Source: Candidatus Aenigmatarchaeota archaeon
Lineage (GTDB): Archaea; EX4484-52
Assembly: GCA_023137195.1 (NCBI GenBank)
Contig: JAGLPV010000001.1
Coordinates: 1-64,000 of the forward strand
Reading direction: 5' to 3'
Length of the DNA: 64,000 nucleotides
A program made the position numbers and the translations under genes. Under the pieces are notes generated by a model. That model was not told the origin of the DNA, searched no databases, and saw nothing but the letters and a program-made list of their open reading frames with translations. Position 1 is the stretch's first letter. Each line of letters begins with the position of its first letter. This document shows positions 1-10,788 of this stretch, in pieces.

Positions 1-437
1 TCACTAATTGCCTTTGTCTGTGATGCGGCATTTTCCCCCAGTTTACTCAATCCAGTCTGTAGCGTGTCAAAAACACCGTCAAATAATTTTTTGTGTGCAG
101 GGCTAATCAAACGATTAAAAGCAGACAATGCATCTCTGACATTAGACACATCAAAATCTTTACCCATTTTAATCCAAGTGGAAAATAAATCTTTATAAGC
201 TATAAAATAGCCAACATTACTTTTGATATGTTCCATCGTTTCAGTATCTTCTTCCGAAAGTGCTTTTATATCTTCATCAGAAAAATCTTCTTTTTTTGCA
301 AACTGTAATTCTTTATCAGATAGGTATTTATAAAAAATAAAGCCCAGAATATAATCCTTGTATTCATTCGCTTCAATTTTTGAACGCATTTGGTTAGCAG
401 ATTCCCATATTTTAGCTGCTAATTGTTGTTTATTCAT
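1..437 (-). CDS. hsdM: Type I restriction-modification methyltransferase subunit M, N-terminal part (runs off window)
   Basis: Not in ORF track. Read by hand from ATG at 437: MNKQQLAAKIWESANQMRSKIEANEYKDYILGFIFYKYLSDKE..., the typical HsdM N-terminal domain. Confidence 0.9.
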   Translation of the reverse strand, partial: MNKQQLAAKIWESANQMRSKIEANEYKDYILGFIFYKYLSDKELQFAKKEDFSDEDIKALSEEDTETMEHIKSNVGYFIAYKDLFSTWIKMGKDFDVSNVRDALSAFNRLISPAHKKLFDGVFDTLQTGLSKLGENAASQTKAIS

Positions 438-531
438 ATTATTCATTCCTTTATCTGCTTTTCATTTTGTTCATAAAATAGATAAGAATTACGTCTTTAT
501 ATATTTTCCCCAATAGCTATAGTTATATGTT

Positions 532-618
532 ACTTAACTTTGGCGTTAAGATAAGTTTTGTGAGAGTTAGGGTGAAGCAAACTGTAAGTTTACGTAACCG
601 TTAAATTTTTTGTTATAT
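532..618. other. Degenerate attC-like recombination site (site A)
   Basis: ACTTAAC (532-538) ... GTTATAT (612-618). Aligns with site B: gttaagataagtttt vs gataagagaagtttt, aaactGTAagttt vs aaacctGCAaggttt, and a shared ttgttata end. Long-range pairing is poor. Confidence 0.45.
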
Positions 619-667
619 TCCTCAGAGGGTTGATTTTTAGTGTAATGATGTTTGTCCTCTATCGTTT

Positions 668-832
668 TTTAGGAACTCCCTCTATAAATTAGAAAAATTT
701 GGGAGAGCGAAGCGAACCTCTTAACCTTTGTTAGACGAAATTTTAATTTCGTTGTGGTTTCCGTTGGTCGGTTAAGAGAAGTTTTTCTTTCGAGCGTAGC
801 GAGACTTTATGTCCGTAGGACGGGGGGCTTCC
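668..832. repeat. Structured ~160-bp module, copy 1 (direct repeat of 6321-6490)
   Basis: 668-726 vs 6321-6379 match at 56/59 nt. A second block, ccgttggtcggttaagagaagtttttct, is identical. Downstream GNA hairpins keep their pairing despite sequence changes. Confidence 0.9.
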
Positions 833-863
833 GTTTTTTATAAATTAGCGAGGGACAAATTGA

Positions 864-958
864 ATATAACATCAGGGATAAGAGAAGTTTTTGGCGTAGC
901 CAAAAATTTGGATGGAGAAACCTGCAAGGTTTCGGAATCTCTTATCCTCTTGTTATAC
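864..958. other. attC-like imperfect palindrome (site B)
   Basis: ATATAAC-atcagg-gataagaga ... tctcttatc-ctctt-GTTATAC. Terminal AAC/GTT boxes, inner paired boxes and two internal GNA-triloop hairpins; 95 bp. Confidence 0.65.
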
Positions 959-1228
959 GATTTTTCATAGAAAAACGAGCCAAAGTGCAACGGTTTTTGC
1001 GTAGCAAAAATTGGCGAAGAGTAAAATTTCCATTTCCTGATATATTCTGCGAAGCAGACAATATGTCCGTAGGACAGGGGGGAGTTCCGTTTGTTTTTGT
1101 TTCTGAAAAAGAAGATGGAGGGGGCTTTTATTTTGGTTCTTTTTCTAAAAGAACATTTATGATTGAGAAAATAAGTTATAGATACATTTATAAATATTTG
1201 AGTATATTTGTGGTTATGAGGGGTTAAT

Positions 1229-1375
1229 ATGGAATCAAAAAACATCACATTAAGAGTAAATTCTGAATTATATAATAAATATAGACAATTATGCAAGAAG
1301 AAGGGTTTATTAGTTTCACGACAAGTAGAGATAATGATGGAAGAACAATTAAAGAAAGAGGAAGATCAGGTTTAG
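1229..1375 (+). CDS. Small ribbon-helix-helix (CopG/Arc-like) DNA-binding protein, 48 aa
   Basis: Below ORF-track cutoff. MESKNITLRVNSELYNKYRQLCKKKGLLVSRQVEIMMEEQLKKEEDQV shows the RHH pattern (ITLRV strand, G-turn, SxxVE helix). Preceded by gagggg; stops 3 bp before the helicase ATG. Confidence 0.75.
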   Translation: MESKNITLRVNSELYNKYRQLCKKKGLLVSRQVEIMMEEQLKKEEDQV

Positions 1376-1378
1376 AAT

Positions 1379-4300
1379 ATGGATACTAAACAGACATTGA
1401 ATAAAAAAATAGAATATTGGAAGAAGAAATTAATAGATTTATCCAAAAGAAATAATCTTGTAAATTATCGTTTTACAAAGTCTAAATCCTTAAAAATTAT
1501 TTATCCTAATTTTAAGCAAATCATAGAAGATTTGAATAATGAAAACTCTATACTTTTTTTAAAAAATGAAAGCAAAGAAGCAAAAGAAAGATTATGGTTG
1601 TCTTCTGAAAAAGATTCTGAAGAGAAGAAGAAAGAAGTAGAAGAGGACAGGAAACTAACGACTCTTTATCGTAAAACAAATGAAAATTTTAAAGAATTAG
1701 GAATAAGTACTTGTTTTGTAAGTTTGGGAATCTTGAAATATAAGGAATCTCCCATTTCAGAAATTTATTCGCAAGCTCCTATCTTTCTCTATCCTGTAAC
1801 CTTGAACAGACTTTCCTCTACATCTAAAGATAAACATCGTTTTGAAATTGTTTCAGGTTCAGAAGATATTCAAGTTAATCCTGCATTGGTAGAAAAATTA
1901 TCTCATGATTTTGATATTCATTTACCCGACTTTGAAGAGCAACCGATTGAAGAATATTTAGATTCGATAAAAAAAATAATATCGGGAATGAAAGATTGGA
2001 AAGTTACAGAAGATATTTATATAGATATATTCTCATATCAAAAATATATTATGTTTAAGGATTTAAGTGAACATGATAAACTCTTACATGAAAGTGATTT
2101 AGTCAAAGCATTTATTGGTGATAAAAATGCACTACAAGATGAAATCTCTGAATCTCAAAGAGATGAGTTTGAAGAAGATGCTAATGATGTAGATGTTTTA
2201 CCTGCTGATTCAACTCAAAAAAAGGCGATAGAATTAGCAAAAGCAGGAGTTACCTTTGTTTTACAAGGTCCCCCTGGAACTGGGAAGAGCCAAACAATCT
2301 CAAATATAATTGCTACACTTTTGGAAAAGAAAAAGAAAGTTCTTTTCGTGAGTCAAAAGATGGCTGCTCTTAATGTTGTTCATAAAAGATTAGAAGAGGT
2401 TGGTTTGGGAAGATATTGTTTAAATTTACATAATTACAGAGGAAATAAAAAAGAAATTATTAGACAATTAAATACTGAATTAGAAACTTCTCCAAGAATA
2501 AAAGAAAGTGTTAAAAGATATTCTTTTGCTGACTATATTAATACTCAAAAAGACTTAAATCATTTTTATGACTTTCTATGTAAAAAACATAAGCCTAGAA
2601 CATTATCTATTTATGATATTAGGGGAGAATTAGCAAAACTTCATTCTATCGAAATTCTTGACAAAAATCTTAATGATTTAATTTCTTCTAATGAAGAAAA
2701 GTTTACAATATTATTATCAAAAATTCAAGATTTAGACTTCGTTATTGAAAAAATACCTAGACCAATGGAGAGTATTTATTTTAATTTTAAAACTTCAAAG
2801 AATACAATATTATCAAGAAATAAATTTAAGACATTGGTAGATAGTGCACATCAAATATCAAAAGAGATTTTGGAATTTATCAAAGAAATTAAAAATGAAG
2901 CAAATCTAAACATTCAAACATTAAAACAATTAGAACTATTTTGTGAATTTCATAAAACAGCCAATAAATTAAAAGAGATACCGGAATTTTTTATTTCTGA
3001 AAACTTTGAAGATTATAAAAAGATAATTTCAGATTTAAGTAAAAATATCTTAAAAATTAACGAACTTAAAGAATCTATTGAAGAAATTAAAAAAGGATTC
3101 CCTGAATTTTTCATGTCTGATGATTTCAATGATTATAAAAAAATAATTATCGATTTGAATAAAAATTTAGTGGAGATTAACAACGCTAAACTTAATCTTA
3201 CTCAAAAAGTAATAGAAATGTTTATTGATGAAAATACTGATAATTACGAAAAAACCTTTAAGGAAACTTCATTTTTATCGCGAGTTTTTAATAAAGAATA
3301 CAAAACCGCTAAAAAAGAATTAGAAAGGTTTTCTAAAGAAAAAATAAATCATAATGGTTGGATAAAATTATTTGAGTTAAAGAAGGATTATAAAAAATAC
3401 TTAGATAAGCATTTAAATATAGAAACTCAAAATAAAAACTGTATTAAAAATTTGGGAGATATTTATTCTGAGAATAATTTAAACAATCTCAATAAAAATG
3501 CAGAAGAATTTCAATTTGAAAAATGGTCTGAATTTAAAAAAGAGTTAGCTGAAAAATTAAAAATACACTCCGAGATAGAAACTCAAAATAAAAACGATAT
3601 TAAAAATTTGGGAGATATTTATTCTGAGAATAATTTAAACAATCTCAATAAAAAAGCAGAAGAATTTTCAGAGACATTTAAGAATTCTAAAAATTTATCT
3701 GAGAAATCAGTTAAACTAATTAATTTTTGGTTATCAGAAAAAGAGCGAGAAAATTCATTAAATGAATTAAAAGACAAGATTAAAAATATTGATGATTATT
3801 TATTTAAATCAATATTAAGTGATACTGAAAATCTAGCAGAGATAGAAGACAAAATCCATGAATTTATTGAAAATATAAAATGTTTGGATGATGTTTTAAT
3901 ATTCAAAGAACAATATTCTTCTCTAAACGAAGAGATAAAAGAATTTGTGAAAGAATATTTTAAGGAAAATATAATATCCAAATTAAGTTCTGTATTTTTA
4001 AAAGCATATTATTTGCAATTACTTGAAGAAATTTTAAAACAAAATAACCTGCCCTCCCCCAAAAATAAGGTGGAAATGTTTAGAGAAAAAGATTTTGAAG
4101 TTAGAGATATTAAACGATATAAAATTATGGATTCTATTGAACAAGGTCAGCCCTCTGTAAATTATCATAGTTATGGTGTGAATGATGTTTCTATTTTAAA
4201 AAGAGAAAATGAAAAGAAAAGAAGATTAAAACCAATAAGAGATTTACTTGAAGAGATTCCAGATTTAATATTTTCTTTAAAACCTTGTTTCATGATGAGT

Positions 4301-6187
4301 CCTCTTTCAGTTAGTCAATATATAAATCCCAATAAGATAAAGTTTGATGTAGTTATCTTTGATGAAGCATCACAAATTATGCCCGAAGATGCTGTTTCTT
4401 GTTTGATGAGGTCAAAACAAGCTATTGTTGTGGGAGATACACAACAATTACCACCAACTAACTTTTTTATGAGCCGTCAGGATGATGAAATTGTTGAAGA
4501 AGAAATTGAAGATTTAGAGAGTTTTCTAAGTGAATGTAGTACTAAATTTAGAAGTAAACCTCTTCTTTGGCATTATCGAAGCAAAAATGAACATTTAATT
4601 GCATTTTCAAATAGATTTTTTTATGAACATAGATTGATAACATTTCCTAATGCAAAAATAAAAGATGATTCCGGATTGGACTTTGTTCATGTGAAAACAG
4701 GAGTATATGACCGGGGTAAATCTAGGAAGAATAGAGTTGAAGCAAGAGAAACAGTAAAGAAATACAAAGAATTAAGGGAAAAATTCCCTAAAAAATCAAT
4801 AGGAATTATTGCATTTAGTATCGCACAAGAAAATGCAATTAGAGAAGAATTTAGAGTTGTAGGAATAAATATAGAAGAATCGTTAGATTCTTATCATGAA
4901 GCTTTATTTGTTAAAAATCTTGAAACCGTTCAGGGTGATGAGAGAGATATAATTTTAATAAGTATTGGTTATGGTAAAGATTCTTTTGGAAAATTAAGTT
5001 ATCATTTTGGACCTCTCAATAGAGAAGGGGGTTATAAGAGATTAAATGTTGCTATAACTAGATCAAGATTTAAAACAGTAGTAATATCTTCTATTTCTCC
5101 AGAAGAGTTAGATGAGGATAAAATAAATGTTGATGGAGTTCGTTATTTGAAATATTATCTTGATTATGCAAAAAACAAAGATTTTAATAAATTTTTACAG
5201 ACAACAGAAGGATTAGACTTTGATTCAAGTTTTGAAGAATCTGTTTATGAAGTATTAACAAATGAAGGATTTTCTGTTAGCACCCAAGTTGGCTGTTCGG
5301 GTTATAGAGTAGATTTAGCAATAAAACATCCTAAAAAACCAGGAGTCTATATCTTAGGGATTGAATGTGATGGGGCACAATATCACTCTTCAAGATTTGC
5401 AAGAGATAGAGATAAAATCAGGCAAGGAATTTTAGAAAGTCTTGGTTGGAATATTCATAGAATTTGGTCTGATGATTGGTTGAATAACCGAGAATATGAA
5501 ATAAAAAAGATAAAAGAAAAAGTTGATGCTTTATTAAGGTCAAAGAAAGAAAATTCACAAGATGAATTAAAATTTGAAAAAGTTGAGGATGTAGAAGATT
5601 TTAAAGAAGTTTCTTTAAAGGATAAATATGGTCAATATGAACTTGCTGAATTGCCAAAGTCCGGAACAAAAATAGAATTTGATGGTTATGGTGATATGGT
5701 TTGGGGTGGCAGCAAAGCAAAAGAATTAATGCTGTCTGTTCTGGAAATTGAATCGCCTATTGAAAAAGAATTATTGTATAAAAGAGTTCTTAGTTCATTT
5801 GGAATAAATAAACTCGGTGCGAGGCTAAGGAGAAATTTTGATGATTTGATTAATCAAATGAAAAGAGAATATCCTAATATTTATGTTTCAGGAGAAACGG
5901 TTTCTATAGACCAAATTGAAGGAATTTGTTCTATAAGAATTTCAAAAGAATTTCAAAGACCATTTATTTTAATTCCTAAAGAAGAAATTGGTGGAGCTAT
6001 TGCCGATATTTTAAAAAATACTTTTGGAGCAACAAAAGAAACATTAGTTGCAGATATTGCAAAAGGTATTTTCCATAACAATAGAACTGGTGGGAAAATT
6101 AAAGCGAAGATTGAAGAAGCAATAAAATATTTAGAAAAAGAAAAAATTGTCGATGTTAATGGTGGGAAAATATTTTTGATGAAATAG
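1379..6187 (+). CDS. DUF4011-SF1 (Upf1/DNA2-like) helicase-Vsr-like nuclease-DUF3320 protein; Hhe-like anti-phage defence
   Basis: N-term WKKKLIDLSKRNNL (DUF4011). Walker A QGPPGTGKSQT, DEASQ, GDTQQLPP, VQGDERD, RLNVAITRSR. C-term GIECDGAQYHS...RDRDKIRQGILESLGWNIHRIWS (Vsr/DUF559-like nuclease). Confidence 0.88.
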   Translation: MDTKQTLNKKIEYWKKKLIDLSKRNNLVNYRFTKSKSLKIIYPNFKQIIEDLNNENSILFLKNESKEAKERLWLSSEKDSEEKKKEVEEDRKLTTLYRKTNENFKELGISTCFVSLGILKYKESPISEIYSQAPIFLYPVTLNRLSSTSKDKHRFEIVSGSEDIQVNPALVEKLSHDFDIHLPDFEEQPIEEYLDSIKKIISGMKDWKVTEDIYIDIFSYQKYIMFKDLSEHDKLLHESDLVKAFIGDKNALQDEISESQRDEFEEDANDVDVLPADSTQKKAIELAKAGVTFVLQGPPGTGKSQTISNIIATLLEKKKKVLFVSQKMAALNVVHKRLEEVGLGRYCLNLHNYRGNKKEIIRQLNTELETSPRIKESVKRYSFADYINTQKDLNHFYDFLCKKHKPRTLSIYDIRGELAKLHSIEILDKNLNDLISSNEEKFTILLSKIQDLDFVIEKIPRPMESIYFNFKTSKNTILSRNKFKTLVDSAHQISKEILEFIKEIKNEANLNIQTLKQLELFCEFHKTANKLKEIPEFFISENFEDYKKIISDLSKNILKINELKESIEEIKKGFPEFFMSDDFNDYKKIIIDLNKNLVEINNAKLNLTQKVIEMFIDENTDNYEKTFKETSFLSRVFNKEYKTAKKELERFSKEKINHNGWIKLFELKKDYKKYLDKHLNIETQNKNCIKNLGDIYSENNLNNLNKNAEEFQFEKWSEFKKELAEKLKIHSEIETQNKNDIKNLGDIYSENNLNNLNKKAEEFSETFKNSKNLSEKSVKLINFWLSEKERENSLNELKDKIKNIDDYLFKSILSDTENLAEIEDKIHEFIENIKCLDDVLIFKEQYSSLNEEIKEFVKEYFKENIISKLSSVFLKAYYLQLLEEILKQNNLPSPKNKVEMFREKDFEVRDIKRYKIMDSIEQGQPSVNYHSYGVNDVSILKRENEKKRRLKPIRDLLEEIPDLIFSLKPCFMMSPLSVSQYINPNKIKFDVVIFDEASQIMPEDAVSCLMRSKQAIVVGDTQQLPPTNFFMSRQDDEIVEEEIEDLESFLSECSTKFRSKPLLWHYRSKNEHLIAFSNRFFYEHRLITFPNAKIKDDSGLDFVHVKTGVYDRGKSRKNRVEARETVKKYKELREKFPKKSIGIIAFSIAQENAIREEFRVVGINIEESLDSYHEALFVKNLETVQGDERDIILISIGYGKDSFGKLSYHFGPLNREGGYKRLNVAITRSRFKTVVISSISPEELDEDKINVDGVRYLKYYLDYAKNKDFNKFLQTTEGLDFDSSFEESVYEVLTNEGFSVSTQVGCSGYRVDLAIKHPKKPGVYILGIECDGAQYHSSRFARDRDKIRQGILESLGWNIHRIWSDDWLNNREYEIKKIKEKVDALLRSKKENSQDELKFEKVEDVEDFKEVSLKDKYGQYELAELPKSGTKIEFDGYGDMVWGGSKAKELMLSVLEIESPIEKELLYKRVLSSFGINKLGARLRRNFDDLINQMKREYPNIYVSGETVSIDQIEGICSIRISKEFQRPFILIPKEEIGGAIADILKNTFGATKETLVADIAKGIFHNNRTGGKIKAKIEEAIKYLEKEKIVDVNGGKIFLMK
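3419..3667 (+). repeat. Intragenic duplication: 93-bp copies at 3419-3511 and 3575-3667
   Basis: IETQNKNxIKNLGDIYSENNLNNLNKxAEEF occurs twice; 3 nt differences; period 156 bp. Confidence 0.9.
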
Positions 6188-6320
6188 AGACGCTTCAAAT
6201 AAATTTCTTTTTCGCAGAAAAAGACTATCTGTCCGAAGGACTAAAAGCCCCCTCTTAATAAATTTCGAGCAACGAAGTTGTGAGTCAATATGTGCGTGGC
6301 ACTGCATTATATTTTTTTCG

Positions 6321-6490
6321 TTTAGGAACTCCCCATATAAATTAGAAAAATTTGGGAGAGCGAAGCGAATCTCTTAACCATAGTTATAGAAAGTGCGAAG
6401 CATTTTCCTGTCGTCCCGTTGGTCGGTTAAGAGAAGTTTTTCTACGAGGCGAAGCCGAGACAATCTGTCCCGAAGGGACGAACTCCCCCC
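6321..6490. repeat. Structured ~160-bp module, copy 2
   Basis: Direct repeat of 668-832; lies between the helicase stop and the recombinase. Confidence 0.9.
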
Positions 6491-6521
6491 TTTTTTATTT
6501 AAGGAAATGGAAATTTTATTG

Positions 6522-6571
6522 CGTATAACAAGAGATTAAACGGAATAAATTACGTTTAATCTACCGATATA
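6522..6571. other. Recombinase-proximal candidate attachment site (attI-like)
   Basis: CGTATAAC-aag-agattaaacg...cgtttaatct. 6522-6534 is the exact reverse complement of 947-959, and 6524-6543 matches the reverse complement of 598-617 at 17/20. Confidence 0.5.
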
Positions 6572-6615
6572 GGATGTTATACTTACTTTTATATATTTAT
6601 TTGCAAATAAAAATA

Positions 6616-7434
6616 ATGGATTTGACTGAAAGTGAAATTTTTTTATTAAAATTAAGAAGAGAGATGGAAATAAGAAATTTTTCTTCAAAAACAGTCAAAA
6701 CATATCTTTATTTCGTGGAAAAGTTTCTCGAATATTTGGGGGATTCGGAACTTTGTGAAGAGACAGTTAAAAATTATATGCAAGAACAAATAATGAAAAA
6801 AGAGCCATCTACGGTTTCCTTAAATCTTAGTGCTATAAAATTCTTTTTTAATAAAGTGTTGTATAAAAATATAGACGTTCCTAATCCAAGGAAAAATAAG
6901 AAAATTCCTGAAGTTTTGACTGTTGGGGAAGTCGGAAGATTGATAGGCGCTATAGATAACATCAAGCACAGGTTGATGATAAAAATGCTTTATGGCTGTG
7001 GGTTAAGAGTGAGCGAACTTGTAAATCTGAAAAAATCGGATTTGAATTTTGAGGAAAATCTTATTCATATACGGCTTGCAAAAGGGAGAAAGGACAGGTT
7101 TGTCAAGATTCCTGAGTCCGTCAAAGAACAACTGGAAAGCTATTGTAAACTTGAGGAAAAGGACACATTATTTTTATCGCAAAGAGGAGGGAAATTATCA
7201 ACCGCAACAATACAAAAAATAATCAAAAATTTTTCAAAAAAGGCAGGAATAAAAAAGAATATTTCTCCTCACACATTAAGGCACAGCTTTGCTACACATC
7301 TGCTTGAAGCAGGAATAGATTTGAAGATTATACAAAAATTGCTTGGTCATTCAGACATCAAGACTACGCAGATATATCTGCATGTTTCCAATCAATTGAT
7401 AAGGAATGTGAAAAGTCCGCTTGATTATTTGTAA
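6616..7434 (+). CDS. Tyrosine recombinase, XerA/integron-integrase-like
   Basis: Catalytic R (GLRVSE), K (AKGRKDR), HxxR (HTLRH), LGH, Y (TTQIY). N-term RNFSSKTVKTY SAM-like domain and C-term VKSPLD resemble IntI, but there is no IntI-specific insertion before box II. Start moved to MDLTE, downstream of TATA-like ttttatata (6587-6595). Confidence 0.92.
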   Translation: MDLTESEIFLLKLRREMEIRNFSSKTVKTYLYFVEKFLEYLGDSELCEETVKNYMQEQIMKKEPSTVSLNLSAIKFFFNKVLYKNIDVPNPRKNKKIPEVLTVGEVGRLIGAIDNIKHRLMIKMLYGCGLRVSELVNLKKSDLNFEENLIHIRLAKGRKDRFVKIPESVKEQLESYCKLEEKDTLFLSQRGGKLSTATIQKIIKNFSKKAGIKKNISPHTLRHSFATHLLEAGIDLKIIQKLLGHSDIKTTQIYLHVSNQLIRNVKSPLDYL

Positions 7435-7504
7435 ACAATGTGCAGATAGTATAGAAAACTATTTTAAGATAAACATATATTATATCTAATATATAAAAAA
7501 GAAA

Positions 7505-9109
7505 ATGGTAATTTCAAAAGACATAATCAAACTCGTCAAAACATATAATAAAGCTAATCTCATAAACATATTGAACCATATACAGCAAAAAGAAGGTTTT
7601 TTATCTGAAAAGAATATTGAGTATATTTCCAAAGAACTATCCATGCCAATGGCTAGAATTTATGAAATGGCAAGTTTCTATTCTTTTTTCTCCTTTGAAA
7701 AAAAAGGAAAACATACAATCCGAATTTGCAACAGCCCTTCCTGCTACATGAACAATTCTGCCAATATATTAAAGGCAATAGAAAAGACAATAGGGCTAAA
7801 ATCAGGAGAGTATAATAACATATTTGATTTTGAAATTGCACAGTGCATTGGTTGCTGTGACGAATCACCCGCTATGCTTGTAGATGGTATCTCATACACA
7901 AAACTAACCAATGCAAAAGTCATAGAAATACTAAACAACATAAAATCAGGAAAAAAAACAAAGAGCATTAATTATACAGGAAAACCACCAGGAGAACACG
8001 CAATGAATATACTCCATAAAACAAACTTCATGTCATTGAAAAAAGCAAAATCAATGAGTCCTGAGAATATAATAAAAAAAGTAAAAAAGTCAGGGCTTAC
8101 AGGCAGGGGAGGGGCTGGTTTTTCTACTGGTCTGAAATGGGAATTTGTGAATAAGACAGGAAAAGAAGGCACATTAATATGCAATTTTGATGAAGGAGAA
8201 CCGGGAACATTCAAAGATAAATTTATTGTAATCAATAACACAGAAACATTAATAGAAGGAATTGCCATTGCTTCTTATGCATTGAAATGCAGGCATGCTT
8301 ATATTTATATGAGAGGAGAGTATGATTATCTCAAAGGCAAACTACAGGAGACAATAAACTCTTCAAAAAAAAATCTGGATGGTTTGGAGATAGAAATAAT
8401 CGAGGGAGCTGGTGCTTACATCTGCGGCGATGAGACAAGCATAATGAATTCTATTGAAGGCAAGGCAGGACACCCGAGACACAAGCCGCCATATCCTGCC
8501 CAGAGTGGATTATGGCAGACACCGACTGCAATAAACAATGTCGAAACACTAATCAACACAGCTCTTTTATTTTGTGAAGGATGGAACAATGATTCAAGAT
8601 TATTTTGCGTTTCAGGGGACGTTGAAGAGGGAGGAGTATTTGAAGAAAAGACAGGACTCTCATTTAAGGAACTTATTGGCAAGGCAAAGCCTAAGGAAAA
8701 AGTAAAAGCACTTTTCCTTGGGGCATCAGGTGGATGCATTCCATACGATGCAAATTCCTGTTTTGATTACGATAAAATAAAGCAAAAAGGAGCATCTCTT
8801 GGCTCGTGTACAATAATTGTTGTGGATAAGAATACAGGCATTGTAGAGTTATGCAAAAATATAACGGCTTTTTTTGTCCATGAAAGTTGTGGAAAATGTA
8901 CTCCATGTAGGGAAGGAAATTATCGGATACTGGAGTTGCTTGAAAAGATTACATCCGGCGAGGGAACAAAACAGGACTTGCTGTTGATTGAGGAATTGTG
9001 CGATTTTATTAAGACAACTTCTTTTTGTCCTTTGGGTCAGTCTTCATGTAATAACCTATCAGGGGCATTAAAATATTTTAGGAGAGAATTTGAGAGATTA
9101 TGCAAATAA
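7505..9109 (+). CDS. NuoE/HydC-NuoF/HydB fusion, diaphorase subunit of [FeFe]-hydrogenase
   Basis: N-term [2Fe-2S] CNSPSC...CIGCC. FMN/NADH motifs GLTGRGGAGF, CNFDEGEPGTFKD, GAGAYICGDET. [4Fe-4S] ESCGKCTPCREG...CPLG. Confidence 0.92.
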   Translation: MVISKDIIKLVKTYNKANLINILNHIQQKEGFLSEKNIEYISKELSMPMARIYEMASFYSFFSFEKKGKHTIRICNSPSCYMNNSANILKAIEKTIGLKSGEYNNIFDFEIAQCIGCCDESPAMLVDGISYTKLTNAKVIEILNNIKSGKKTKSINYTGKPPGEHAMNILHKTNFMSLKKAKSMSPENIIKKVKKSGLTGRGGAGFSTGLKWEFVNKTGKEGTLICNFDEGEPGTFKDKFIVINNTETLIEGIAIASYALKCRHAYIYMRGEYDYLKGKLQETINSSKKNLDGLEIEIIEGAGAYICGDETSIMNSIEGKAGHPRHKPPYPAQSGLWQTPTAINNVETLINTALLFCEGWNNDSRLFCVSGDVEEGGVFEEKTGLSFKELIGKAKPKEKVKALFLGASGGCIPYDANSCFDYDKIKQKGASLGSCTIIVVDKNTGIVELCKNITAFFVHESCGKCTPCREGNYRILELLEKITSGEGTKQDLLLIEELCDFIKTTSFCPLGQSSCNNLSGALKYFRREFERLCK

Positions 9110-10788
9110 TAATTGATGGAAGGGAACTTAGGGCAAAGTTGGGAGAGACTATATTGGAAGTAGCCTTAAAGAATGGAATCAATATCCCTCATCTTTGTTA
9201 TGATCCTGACCTGCCGCCGGAGGGAAATTGTAGGATGTGCATCTGTGAAGTTAATGGTAATGTAATGACGACATGCAATACTGTAGTTGAGAACAACATG
9301 ATTGTCGAGACAGAGACAAAGAGGATTAACGAATTAAGGAAAATAAATATCGAGCTTCTTTTGTCTAAGCACAAGGCAGAAGAATCTTCTCATCCCAATC
9401 AATTACTGGATTTGAAAAAAAAACACAGGATTGAAAACAATGGTCGGTTTGAAAAAAAACACAAAAACAAAAAAGATAAATCCTCTTATTCTATAGTTCG
9501 GGATGATTCCAAGTGTATATTATGTGGGAGATGCATAAATAAATGCAGTCAAACACAGGCAGTCAATGCAATTTGTTTTGTAGGTAGGGGAAAAGATATA
9601 AAAGTAGGTACAGCATTTGAACATGCTCTGTCCGAGACAGCATGTGTCGATTGTGGACAATGTGTAATGACTTGTCCTTCAGGAGCGCTCAGGGAAGTGG
9701 ACGATATCGCAGGGGTTAAAGAAGCAATTGACAACAAGTCAAAATACGTTGTTGTGCAAACTGCGCCAGCCATAAGGGTCTCTATTGGAGAGGAGTTTGG
9801 TCTGCCGGTAGGGACAATTGTTACAAAAAAACTGGTTTCTGCTTTGAGAAAGACAGGTTTTGACAAGGTTTTTGATACAGATTTTGGAGCGGATTTGACT
9901 ATTGTTGAAGAGGCATCTGAGTTTATTGCGAGGGCAACAAGTGGCGGCGTTCTGCCCATGTTTACATCCTGCTGTCCTGCATGGGTCAAATATGTAGAGC
10001 ATTTTTATCCGGAGTTTATACCTAATCTTTCCTCGTGCAAATCTCCTCACCAGATGGTTGGGGCCGTAACAAAAACATATTATGCAAAAAAGCTAAAATT
10101 AAACCCAAAAGATATTGTAGTAGTAAGCATTATGCCATGCACTGCAAAGAAATTTGAATGCAAAAGACCGGAGATGAAATCAGATGGCTTTGTAGATGTT
10201 GATTTTGTATTAACTACAAGAGAAGCTGCGCGATTCATAAAACAAGAAGGCGTTGATTTAATCGGGGCGAATGAGGAAGAATACGACAATCCTTTAGGGG
10301 AATCCACTGGTGCCGGTGTTATTTTTGGTGCGACAGGAGGAGTGATGGAGGCAGCATTGAGGACAGCTTATGAATACGTCACAGGAAAAGGAGTGACTGA
10401 TCTTGAATTCAACCAGATAAGAGGTTTGCCGGGCATTAAAGAAGGTAGCATTACAATGAAGGGTACTGAGTATAATTTTGCTGTGGTGCACGGTCTTGCA
10501 AATGCAAAAGTGTTGATGGAAGAGATAAAGGCAGGAAAAAGCAAATATCATTTTATTGAAGTTATGGCATGTCCGGGGGGGTGTATTGGTGGTGGTGGTC
10601 AGCCCATTCCGACAAACGATCAGATAAGGAAGAAAAGGATAGAAGCACTGTATCGTGAAGACAGGAACCTGCCATTTAGAAAGTCACATGAGAATCCATC
10701 AATAAAGAAATTGTATGATGAATTTTTGAAAAAACCATTGGGGAAAAAATCCCACCAGTTATTGCATACAAAATATACCAAAAGATAA
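9100..10788 (+). CDS. hydA: [FeFe]-hydrogenase catalytic subunit, group A
   Basis: H-cluster motifs L1 TSCCPAW, L2 MPCTAKKFE, L3 EVMACPGGCIGGGGQP. N-term [2Fe-2S] and 2x[4Fe-4S] (CILCGRC, CVDCGQC...CP). C-term small-subunit region SHENP...LLHT. Confidence 0.97.
   Translation: MQIIIDGRELRAKLGETILEVALKNGINIPHLCYDPDLPPEGNCRMCICEVNGNVMTTCNTVVENNMIVETETKRINELRKINIELLLSKHKAEESSHPNQLLDLKKKHRIENNGRFEKKHKNKKDKSSYSIVRDDSKCILCGRCINKCSQTQAVNAICFVGRGKDIKVGTAFEHALSETACVDCGQCVMTCPSGALREVDDIAGVKEAIDNKSKYVVVQTAPAIRVSIGEEFGLPVGTIVTKKLVSALRKTGFDKVFDTDFGADLTIVEEASEFIARATSGGVLPMFTSCCPAWVKYVEHFYPEFIPNLSSCKSPHQMVGAVTKTYYAKKLKLNPKDIVVVSIMPCTAKKFECKRPEMKSDGFVDVDFVLTTREAARFIKQEGVDLIGANEEEYDNPLGESTGAGVIFGATGGVMEAALRTAYEYVTGKGVTDLEFNQIRGLPGIKEGSITMKGTEYNFAVVHGLANAKVLMEEIKAGKSKYHFIEVMACPGGCIGGGGQPIPTNDQIRKKRIEALYREDRNLPFRKSHENPSIKKLYDEFLKKPLGKKSHQLLHTKYTKR

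Follow-up and report, generated by a model that had tools for sequence, protein, structure and literature searches.

A probable integron-like cassette array beside a XerA-family recombinase gene in a DPANN archaeon

The first 64,000 nucleotides of contig JAGLPV010000001.1 from a Candidatus Aenigmatarchaeota archaeon (assembly GCA_023137195.1; here genome G000, with 1.42 Mb in 57 contigs, 35% G+C, and the stretch as C1:1-64000) are referred to below as the window. At the left end of the window, structured DNA sites that delimit units of accessory DNA lie in front of a gene for a tyrosine recombinase, the closest homologues of which carry DPANN lineage labels; the genome also encodes an archaeal-type Pus10. 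We consider it fairly probable that this region is the recombinase-proximal end of an integron-like cassette array, served by a Xer-type recombinase and by folded sites that are derived from dif. An earlier note on the window, made from its sequence without database searches, had proposed an unconventional cassette system with an IntI-like enzyme; much of that description stands, and the label of the enzyme does not.

The four terminal repeats quoted in that note were all found where it had placed them: TGTTATATTC (611-620), GAATATAACA (862-871), CTCTTGTTATACG (947-959) and CGTATAACAAGAG (6522-6534). A lone 13-nucleotide (nt) inverted repeat is not significant by itself, since an estimated 0.4-2 are expected by chance in 7 kb of AT-rich DNA. 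The repeats are parts of larger sites, the coordinates and model scores of which are given in Table 1. Site B is a canonical member of a family of structured sites, called X, and has the order ATTG-AATA-TAAC, a 4-nt spacer, the helix strand L'', hairpin 1 (GTA loop), a conserved junction, hairpin 2 (GCA loop), the helix strand L' and GTTA-TACG. Site A, described earlier as degenerate, is indeed a degenerate member of the same family, with GTTA-TATT (612-619) as its right arm, and the site that abuts the recombinase promoter shares its left arm, ATTG-CGTA-TAAC, with the X family. The unit between sites A and B, claimed to be gene-less, contains only a second type of module, named Z. Another copy of Z precedes the terminal site, and the two are 81% identical over 152 nt, in agreement with the postulated extra structured module.

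An X site is about 95 nt long. It comprises two short outer arms (R''/R'), an unpaired spacer of 3-5 nt, an inner helix (L''/L') and a three-way junction, from which two hairpins with GNA triloops project. The 5' half of the consensus reads ATTG-N4-TAAC, 4-5 unpaired nt, an inner helix of 9-10 base pairs (bp), unpaired AAGT and hairpin 1; the 3' half continues with the junction ATTTGG..GGA, hairpin 2, CGGAA, the return strand of the inner helix, 2-3 unpaired nt and GTTA-N4'. RNAalifold run on a plain MAFFT alignment of 24 X sites returned no structure because hairpins of variable length were misaligned, and it was replaced by a hand-written structure, which was combined with nine well-aligned X sites into a covariance model, R1. 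This model yielded 42 full-length X sites, from the window and 30 loci. Paired cells reach 92.2% in these sites, as compared to 70.5% after shuffling and 32-46% in slid controls, with changes on both sides in 24 of the 28 pairs and with none of 500 shuffles attaining the observed values; these counts are not independent, since the X sites are kin, and they were taken from an alignment fitted to the model. Compensatory changes are also evident in the raw rows, and the TAAC/GTTA pairs are retained in 37-40 of the 42 sites. No conserved bulged (extrahelical) base occurs in their inner helix, as had been remarked for the inner box of site B; all that is present is an asymmetric spacer loop of 4-5 by 2-3 nt.

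When folded as single-stranded DNA, site B adopts the consensus three-way junction at -21.5 kcal/mol (z -6.8), X sites in general give z-scores of -4.7 to -7.8, and the terminal site reaches -12.8 kcal/mol (z -5.9). The two strands are not equivalent. Among the 61 triloop hairpins of the 42 sites, GNA loops occur 42 times on the X strand and twice on the opposite strand, against a genome background of 7.6% and 6.6%, and folding of the X strand is 1-3 kcal/mol more favourable than that of its complement. In the Z modules one T.G pair is invariant, and 8 of 13 copies also contain a G.T pair. Triloop bias, wobble pairs in Z and the gap in folding energy speak for a structure formed by one strand. 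Triloops of the type C-GNA-G typify DNA hairpins of unusual stability, a point in favour of DNA over RNA as the folding molecule.

Twelve loci with at least two X sites contain 35 of them, on one strand per locus and at spacings of 0.4-5 kb, with one to several open reading frames (ORFs) on either strand in between; further arrays of 3-6 sites were found in G041, G031, G027 and G010. Cassettes are bounded by the cores GTTA-N4 ... N4'-TAAC. The four bases that follow GTTA in site n-1 and the four that precede TAAC in site n are perfectly reverse-complementary in 12 of the 23 pairs of neighbours (mean 3.0 of 4 bases), versus 2 of 42 for the two arms of one X site (mean 1.9) and 8.4% when all non-self pairs are compared. 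The rule is kept by at least eight different N4 pairs, and both units in the window follow it (TATT/AATA and TACG/CGTA). The complementary GTT/AAC cassette ends suggested earlier recur beyond the window. Read from the sequences, such complementarity between neighbouring sites is the signature of integron cassettes. X occurs in 32 of the 42 genomes of the phylum, and in a DNA search 25 of 41 related genomes matched the modules, at 74-91% identity and across families. On other contigs of G000, modules flank a DpnII-type restriction-modification (R-M) operon together with a gene for a 1199-amino-acid (aa) protein (C45), and a Schlafen/AlbA-domain gene with small ORFs (C56).

Linkage of X to the recombinase was assessed in a protein-based sample of 80 loci, one genome per species, consisting of 37 DPANN loci (recombinase 47-70% identical) and 43 others. 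The DPANN loci gave 36 X matches, 34 of them upstream of the recombinase gene and 33 on its strand, which amounts to 34 matches in 119 kb of upstream DNA versus 2 in 231 kb downstream. No X match was obtained in the 43 other loci, of which 42 are bacterial and which include true integron integrases. At least one X is present in 14 of the 17 DPANN loci that have more than 1.2 kb of upstream flank. The two expectations formulated earlier, that sites accompany homologues of the enzyme across DPANN and that arrays extend from the 5' end of its gene, are thus in line with the data, with one sub-clade as an exception to the latter. Among the 41 genomes searched both for X and for recombinases of the window type (class 1), the latter occur in 11 of 31 with X and 0 of 10 without, which serves as a consistency check only, since these genomes are incomplete and related. 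For many DPANN class 1 genes (L066-L087) the contig ends less than 1 kb from the 5' side of the gene, which suggests that the arrays systematically break metagenome assemblies.

Orthologous recombinases in G000, G001 and G003, the genomes of the genus that possess class 1, are preceded by three different first cassettes, as would be expected for the variable upstream genes that had been predicted. Ordinary housekeeping genes follow downstream of the recombinases at the various loci, encoding topoisomerase IA, SRP54 with an intein, a P-type ATPase, an eRF1-like protein, parts of an energy-coupling factor (ECF) transporter, or a hydrogenase. The SRP54 gene directly downstream of one class 1 recombinase (L090:8769-11873) bears an intein with a LAGLIDADG domain.

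The layout of the terminal site, i.e. AAC, 5 nt and a palindrome of 10-12 bp, 6 nt and 10-12 bp, is found in 19 of the 37 DPANN loci, in the window and in G003. The palindrome lies 52-110 nt before the gene and is followed by a promoter-like A/T box. Its arms vary by genome, even within a genus (G000, G001, G003), and complementarity is kept: 16 distinct arms were counted among 20 terminal sites compared. An nhmmer model of the window terminal site found no matches in other DPANN loci because the palindrome arms are not conserved, and the sites were located by a palindrome scan instead. The arm-6-arm palindromes often read ATAA-N6-TTAT; their 6-nt centre is GTTTAT in 8 of 19 and its near-complement in others, and several loci have a third, direct copy of the arm. 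Homology between the cassettes of the window and G001 extends through ATTGCGTATAACA and ends there, which places the cassette border at the TAAC core and not at the centre of the palindrome. The idea that the 12-6-12 palindrome is the crossover site, as in a true dif, was dropped, since neither the cassette homology nor the TAAC core reaches it: both stop 5 nt short of the palindrome. A solitary perfect 12-6-12 copy of the window palindrome is present in opposite orientation at C20:2363-2417 of G000 (L003). The gene that precedes it is unannotated, no recombinase lies anywhere near, and the copy may represent a remnant or a secondary attachment site.

With respect to the enzyme, the scores point to the XerA family, and the label 'IntI-like' was therefore abandoned. 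The window recombinase obtains 257.9 bits with NCBIfam XerA_Arch (NF040815; cut-off 220) and 216.2 bits, in two stretches, with the integron integrase model TIGR02249 (cut-off 265). Its best solved relatives are XerA proteins (4a8e in the Protein Data Bank, 2.9e-50), whereas IntI4 (2a3v) aligns in two stretches that leave its residues 182-241 unmatched against query 178-193. This agrees with the absence of the IntI-specific insertion that had been claimed, as do the lengths of 266-287 aa for class 1 proteins and mostly 318-327 aa (range 318-370) for 12 sequences of the IntI-like clade from Vibrionaceae, Shewanella and others. The start codon is most likely the ATG at 6616 and not 6574, because homologues of 266-272 aa align from there.

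A second paralogue in G000, class 2 on contig C45, is 37% identical to class 1 and also exceeds the XerA_Arch cut-off (224.5 bits); two strong paralogues are present in four of five other DPANN genomes examined. In an IQ-TREE phylogeny with IntI, Bacteroidota and bacterial Xer sequences, class 1 forms a clade with support 82/75 that is recovered in 84% of the bootstrap trees, class 2 one with 99/96 and IntI one with 100/100, and the branching order among class 1, class 2, IntI and the Bacteroidota group is unresolved. A sister relation of class 1 to IntI, hinted at by FastTree (support 85), was not reproduced. Branching within class 1 crosses families and phyla, with f4 genes nested among those of f6 and g1 genes grouping with other phyla, whereas the class 2 tree of the order's copies tracks family taxonomy. 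Judged by these trees, class 1 is horizontally distributed and not vertically inherited, and class 2 is vertical and a putative housekeeping XerA. The separateness from the housekeeping enzyme that the earlier note had counted on is thereby found.

Just upstream of the class 2 gene lies a perfect 11-6-11 palindrome with arms ATTGCGTATAA (C45:31060-31087; L001, about 3061-3088), which is kept in G002, of the same genus, with an inverted spacer; similar palindromes of the type ATAA-N6-TTAT precede the class 2 genes of family f4. Class 2 and this palindrome probably form the chromosomal xerA/dif module, and such modules have been described in some archaea (PMC5357621; Cortez et al., PMC2958812). 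The arm of the C45 palindrome, ATTG-CGTA-TAA, recurs as the most frequent outer arm of X, and for this reason X looks like a dif the centre of which has been expanded into a folding insert. A folded X site would, according to the structural model, consist of one duplex formed by the outer arms and one formed by the inner arms, with a mismatched 6-nt spacer between them, as in an integron attC or the CTX-phage site.

Several observations suggest that cassettes move. A cassette with a 142-aa ORF is common to G000 (C56) and G001 (C66), 88.5% identical over 520 nt and with different neighbours; on one side the homology stops at TAAC, and on the other it stops some tens of nt within GTTA-TGTG. Genomes from two families share a two-gene cassette (89.4% identity over 1303 nt), and a cassette with a DsbA-like ORF and Z is shared by records labelled Parvarchaeum and Pacearchaeota. 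In unitigs from the source metagenome the modules have 5-9 times the flanking depth, with many alternative continuations at X borders. Of the excision and reordering foreseen at the borders, the latter is suggested by the occurrence of the same cassettes in different arrays; a circular 952/6529 joint did not appear in the unitigs.

Defence genes are frequent in the cargo, as had been anticipated, and include ProA/PDC-S37-like, HsdM, DpnII, CfrBI, type I and IIG R-M sets, two GmrSD and Schlafen/AlbA. The cargo as a whole is mixed, with nitroreductase, DsbA-like, GNAT, choloylglycine-hydrolase-like and MarR-like proteins and an MscS fragment, and many cassette products match no family. The 1199-aa protein beside the DpnII-type operon (L001:6024-9623) has no match in Pfam, NCBIfam or PADLOC and is a candidate for an unknown defence gene. 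No transposase was seen beside the modules in the loci read.

X is accompanied by two other conserved modules, Y and Z, which on the basis of their conservation and predicted folds are structured companions of X. Both also occur in distant DPANN loci, always on the same strand, and Z often stands directly before the gene; the order of Z followed by the recombinase, as in the window, recurs in L067, L091 and L094. Of 33 predicted pairs in Z, 13 show compensatory changes. Its fold is a circular permutation of the three-way junction of X: hairpin 1 of X corresponds in Z to a helix with an open end, and a GTTA core together with a small hairpin caps the inner helix of Z. The interpretation of Z as a decayed X was rejected in view of its identity of up to 92% between families, its occurrence in other phyla and its own covariation. 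With a TATA-like box some 20-25 nt ahead of the conserved core and a T-run after it, Z could be a small RNA gene. Y, which also terminates in a T-run, is 79.6% identical to C45 40421-40521 over 103 nt and gave 20 nhmmer matches.

The features of the window are collected in Table 1. Contig C1 starts within hsdM, so the array may extend past the window edge, and the HsdM fragment is presumably cargo of its next unit. The type I R-M system suspected earlier is represented by this N-terminal fragment only. The 1602-aa protein scores 1161.9 bits with PADLOC PDC-S37, 523 bits with Hhe and 1122.8 bits with NCBIfam ProA, which is below the cut-off of 1500, and can be regarded as a ProA/PDC-S37/Hhe-like anti-phage candidate. 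Its gene contains in-frame tandem duplications at 2971-3190 and 3364-3667, with units of 120 nt (71% identity) and 156 nt (81% identity). The small ORF in front of it is tentatively, from weak profile matches, RelB/DinJ- or ribbon-helix-helix-like. The terminal repeats of this unit are prolonged beyond the 13-nt cores by a 23-nt inverted repeat (1022-1044 / 6496-6518, 91% complementary), and at the left end two inserted Y hairpins separate this repeat from the core. The TATA-like box would be the recombinase promoter. Downstream of the recombinase (7505-10788) are genes for a NuoF-like flavoprotein and an [FeFe]-hydrogenase large subunit, a notable metabolism for a small DPANN-type genome. Rfam 15 detects only two tRNAs in the whole 64-kb window.

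Table 1 Features at the left end of the window (positions in the 64,000-nt stretch)
Feature	Position	Strand	Evidence and remarks
HsdM N-terminal part, type I R-M methylase	3-446	-	Pfam HsdM_N, 3.4e-17; truncated at contig start
Site A, degenerate X-type	527-618	+	R1 42.9 bits, E 2.2e-8; nhmmer E 1.9e-8
Z module, copy 1	664-842	+	Sole content of gene-less unit 611-871
Site B, canonical X	859-958	+	R1 114.2 bits
Y module	962-1110	+	Three GNA-triloop hairpins and terminal T-run; directly 3' of site B
48-aa small ORF	1229-1375	+	Upstream of helicase gene; weak NCBIfam matches only, E 0.003-0.008, below cut-off
1602-aa DUF4011 / SF1 helicase / MTES_1575 nuclease	1379-6187	+	Pfam; cargo of unit 953-6529
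Y-like run of GNA-triloop hairpins	6188-6312	+	Direct repeats D4/D6; triloops at 6214, 6235 and 6274
Z module, copy 2	6317-6498	+	Immediately before terminal site
Terminal (attI-like) site	6518-6583	+	ATTG-CGTA-TAAC 6518-6529, 5 nt, 12-6-12 palindrome 6533-6562, GTTATAC 6576-6582
TATA-like box	6588-6598	+	About 20 nt before recombinase start codon; read from sequence
272-aa XerA-family tyrosine recombinase, class 1	6616-7434	+	Catalytic motifs present; without IntI insertion

A mechanism that would account for these features can be envisaged. One strand of X would fold as single-stranded DNA into a dif-like duplex consisting of the R arm, a bubble and the L arm; the recombinase would exchange a single strand at the border between TAA and C, or G and TTA on the other side; and replication would finish the exchange, comparable to attC x attI recombination in integrons and to CTX-phage integration at dif. 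Cassettes would leave as circles and re-enter at the terminal site.

A number of observations weigh against an integron-like array. Apart from the kinship of the X sites mentioned above, the N4 rule is broken in 11 of the 23 neighbour pairs, and the cassette shared by C56 and C66 breaks it too; such failures may reflect undetected sites, decayed sites or true exceptions. The array on C45 of G000 is not adjacent to a class 1 gene, and in the sub-clade of families f4, f6 and f8 the array is located at the 3' end of the gene instead of the 5' end, with the junction of Z and terminal site abutting that 3' end. Cassettes carry genes on both strands and whole operons, unlike those of classical integrons. 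The wobble cells of X include 31 G.T/T.G and 27 A.C/C.A, about equal numbers, so the wobble pairs in X select no strand. No 952/6529 joint or circle was present in unitigs from four metagenome runs of one study, in which uncovered parts are no evidence either way. A single deletion-like joint (682 to 6336, depth 2.85, one run) connects two Z repeats, a result that homologous recombination or an assembly path would give. Finally, the enzyme exceeds the cut-off of the XerA equivalog model, and xerA/dif modules are known in archaea (PMC5357621).

The last point leads to the alternative that the system exploits an ordinary xerA/dif module, in the manner of integrative mobile elements exploiting Xer (IMEX) or of pdif modules. 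Cassettes would then integrate as duplexes through the host XerA, possibly class 2, and accumulate beside the site as CTX, TLC and RS1 do at the Vibrio dif, folding of X being incidental. That both paralogues pass the XerA_Arch cut-off, that terminal palindromes have an arm-6-arm layout, and that the commonest outer arm is the class 2 palindrome arm conserved in G002 all fit such a process, as does the existence of xerA/dif modules in some archaea (PMC5357621). Moreover, the R'' arm, 6 nt and the L'' arm that are found in every X and terminal site could form a duplex core. We nevertheless consider this rather unlikely. The arms of class 1 palindromes are variable yet complementary, unlike a conserved dif, the TAAC border lies 5 nt outside the palindrome and not within its spacer, and the 6-nt spacers vary among sites, which impedes full duplex exchange. 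A duplex route also leaves the covariation of L'' and L', the complementarity of N4 and N4' and the GNA bias unexplained, and class 1 is not inherited vertically.

Two further explanations dispense with site-specific recombination at X. X, Y and Z could be structured RNAs, such as small RNA genes, processing or ribozyme-like elements, or terminators and insulators, which flank accessory genes and have the recombinase as a neighbour by island association. Strong covariation with conserved unpaired junction bases would suit an RNA, and so would the T-runs of Y and Z, the TATA-like box before the core of Z and the location of all modules on one strand. Circular permutation of junctions, as seen between X and Z, occurs in some ribozyme classes. 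Rfam has no match at E <= 1 in positions 1-8000 of the window, however, genes lie on both strands relative to X, and an RNA role does not explain N4 complementarity, polarity upstream of one recombinase clade or homology that ends at the cores, which makes this explanation quite improbable. The modules could also be miniature repeats, similar to miniature inverted-repeat transposable elements (MITEs) or repetitive extragenic palindromic (REP) sequences, that are moved by another enzyme or that provide homology for exchange through the flanks formed by Y, Z and X. The high depth of the modules, the branching of unitigs there, the joint between two Z copies and the flanks that are 82-95% conserved around unrelated cargo in G000 and G001 are what such repeats might produce. 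With no transposase alongside the modules in the loci read, strict co-orientation, polarity towards a tyrosine recombinase, and borders that are set by 4-nt cores and their complementary variable bases and do not fall just anywhere within the homology, we regard this as very improbable indeed.

If the array is integron-like, it is useful to compare it with systems that are already known. In common with integrons it has a tyrosine recombinase that ends a polar array, which in the main clade lies upstream of its 5' end; co-oriented imperfect palindromes of the order R''-L''...L'-R' with AAC/GTT cores and an unpaired central spacer; cassettes whose first bases complement the outer arm of their own site; and variable accessory cargo, with sites more alike within a genome. 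It differs from integrons in that the archaeal enzyme is devoid of the IntI-specific domain, stays below the integrase cut-off and forms its own clade, and in that X has a three-way junction, GNA triloops and conserved junction bases, without a conserved extrahelical base. Classical cassettes are mostly promoterless and single-ORF, in one orientation and read from Pc, whereas X cassettes are often multi-gene, with genes on either strand and their own promoters, and are accompanied by Y and Z. The system would work like an integron, and is not a member of that group by integrase domain, extrahelical bases and cassette style. The integrons described for archaea carry an IntI that includes the additional domain, and 75 of 6718 archaeal genomes were found to contain them (Ghaly et al. 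2022, PMC9668308), as compared to X in 32 of 42 genomes of a single phylum. No prior description was found in the literature searched, and a partial overlap with the attC clusters published for archaea in that paper is possible.

The likeness to Xer-dependent systems is also considerable. CTX-phage, an IMEX, uses a folded single-stranded attP that XerCD recombines at dif (PMC5357621), and X resembles it in having a Xer-family enzyme nearby, in inverted halves that would fold to a dif-like duplex with a mismatched centre, in outer arms that match the arm of the putative host dif and in tandem build-up on one side of a functional site. It differs in that gene cassettes and not phages are involved, in the dedicated second paralogue at the array and in a terminal palindrome unlike the conserved dif. 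Single-recombinase Xer modules such as XerS/difSL and xerA/dif (PMC5357621, PMC2958812) likewise have a recombinase gene linked to an adjacent arm-6-arm palindrome, and class 2 of G000 looks like one of them; in class 1 the arms differ freely between sites, the distribution of the enzyme is horizontal and the site borders on a cassette array. As compared to XerA/dif resolution in archaea, class 1 matches the equivalog model, and lacks a single conserved 11-6-11 dif and vertical inheritance. The pdif modules of Acinetobacter are discrete gene modules in varied contexts that are bounded by Xer-type sites as well, but these sites are 28-bp duplexes of alternating orientation on plasmids, whereas X is about 95 nt long, folded, co-oriented and chromosomal.

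A wider proposal, towards which we are slightly more doubtful than confident, is that DPANN archaea possess integrons of a second kind, which are either ancestral to the bacterial integron or independent of it, with a Xer-clade enzyme without the IntI domain and dif-derived single-stranded three-way-junction sites. Their chromosomal arrays would be a main route for exchange of defence and accessory genes across archaeal families and phyla, and the permuted X/Z junction would represent a new class of structured nucleic-acid signal that is recognised whatever its connectivity.

Integrons are thought to have arisen once, when a Xer-like recombinase gained a domain for folded attC sites. If the present interpretation is true, structure-specific capture of cassettes can be built without the IntI domain, and the system would offer a living model of a step between Xer/dif (or IMEX) and integrons. 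The X model would allow direct mapping of arrays in metagenomes, and the arrays would form a rich and simply delimited source of accessory genes without family match. Such a platform would also explain the exchange of defence systems among genome-reduced DPANN archaea, in which cassettes of about 89% nucleotide identity are common to different families.

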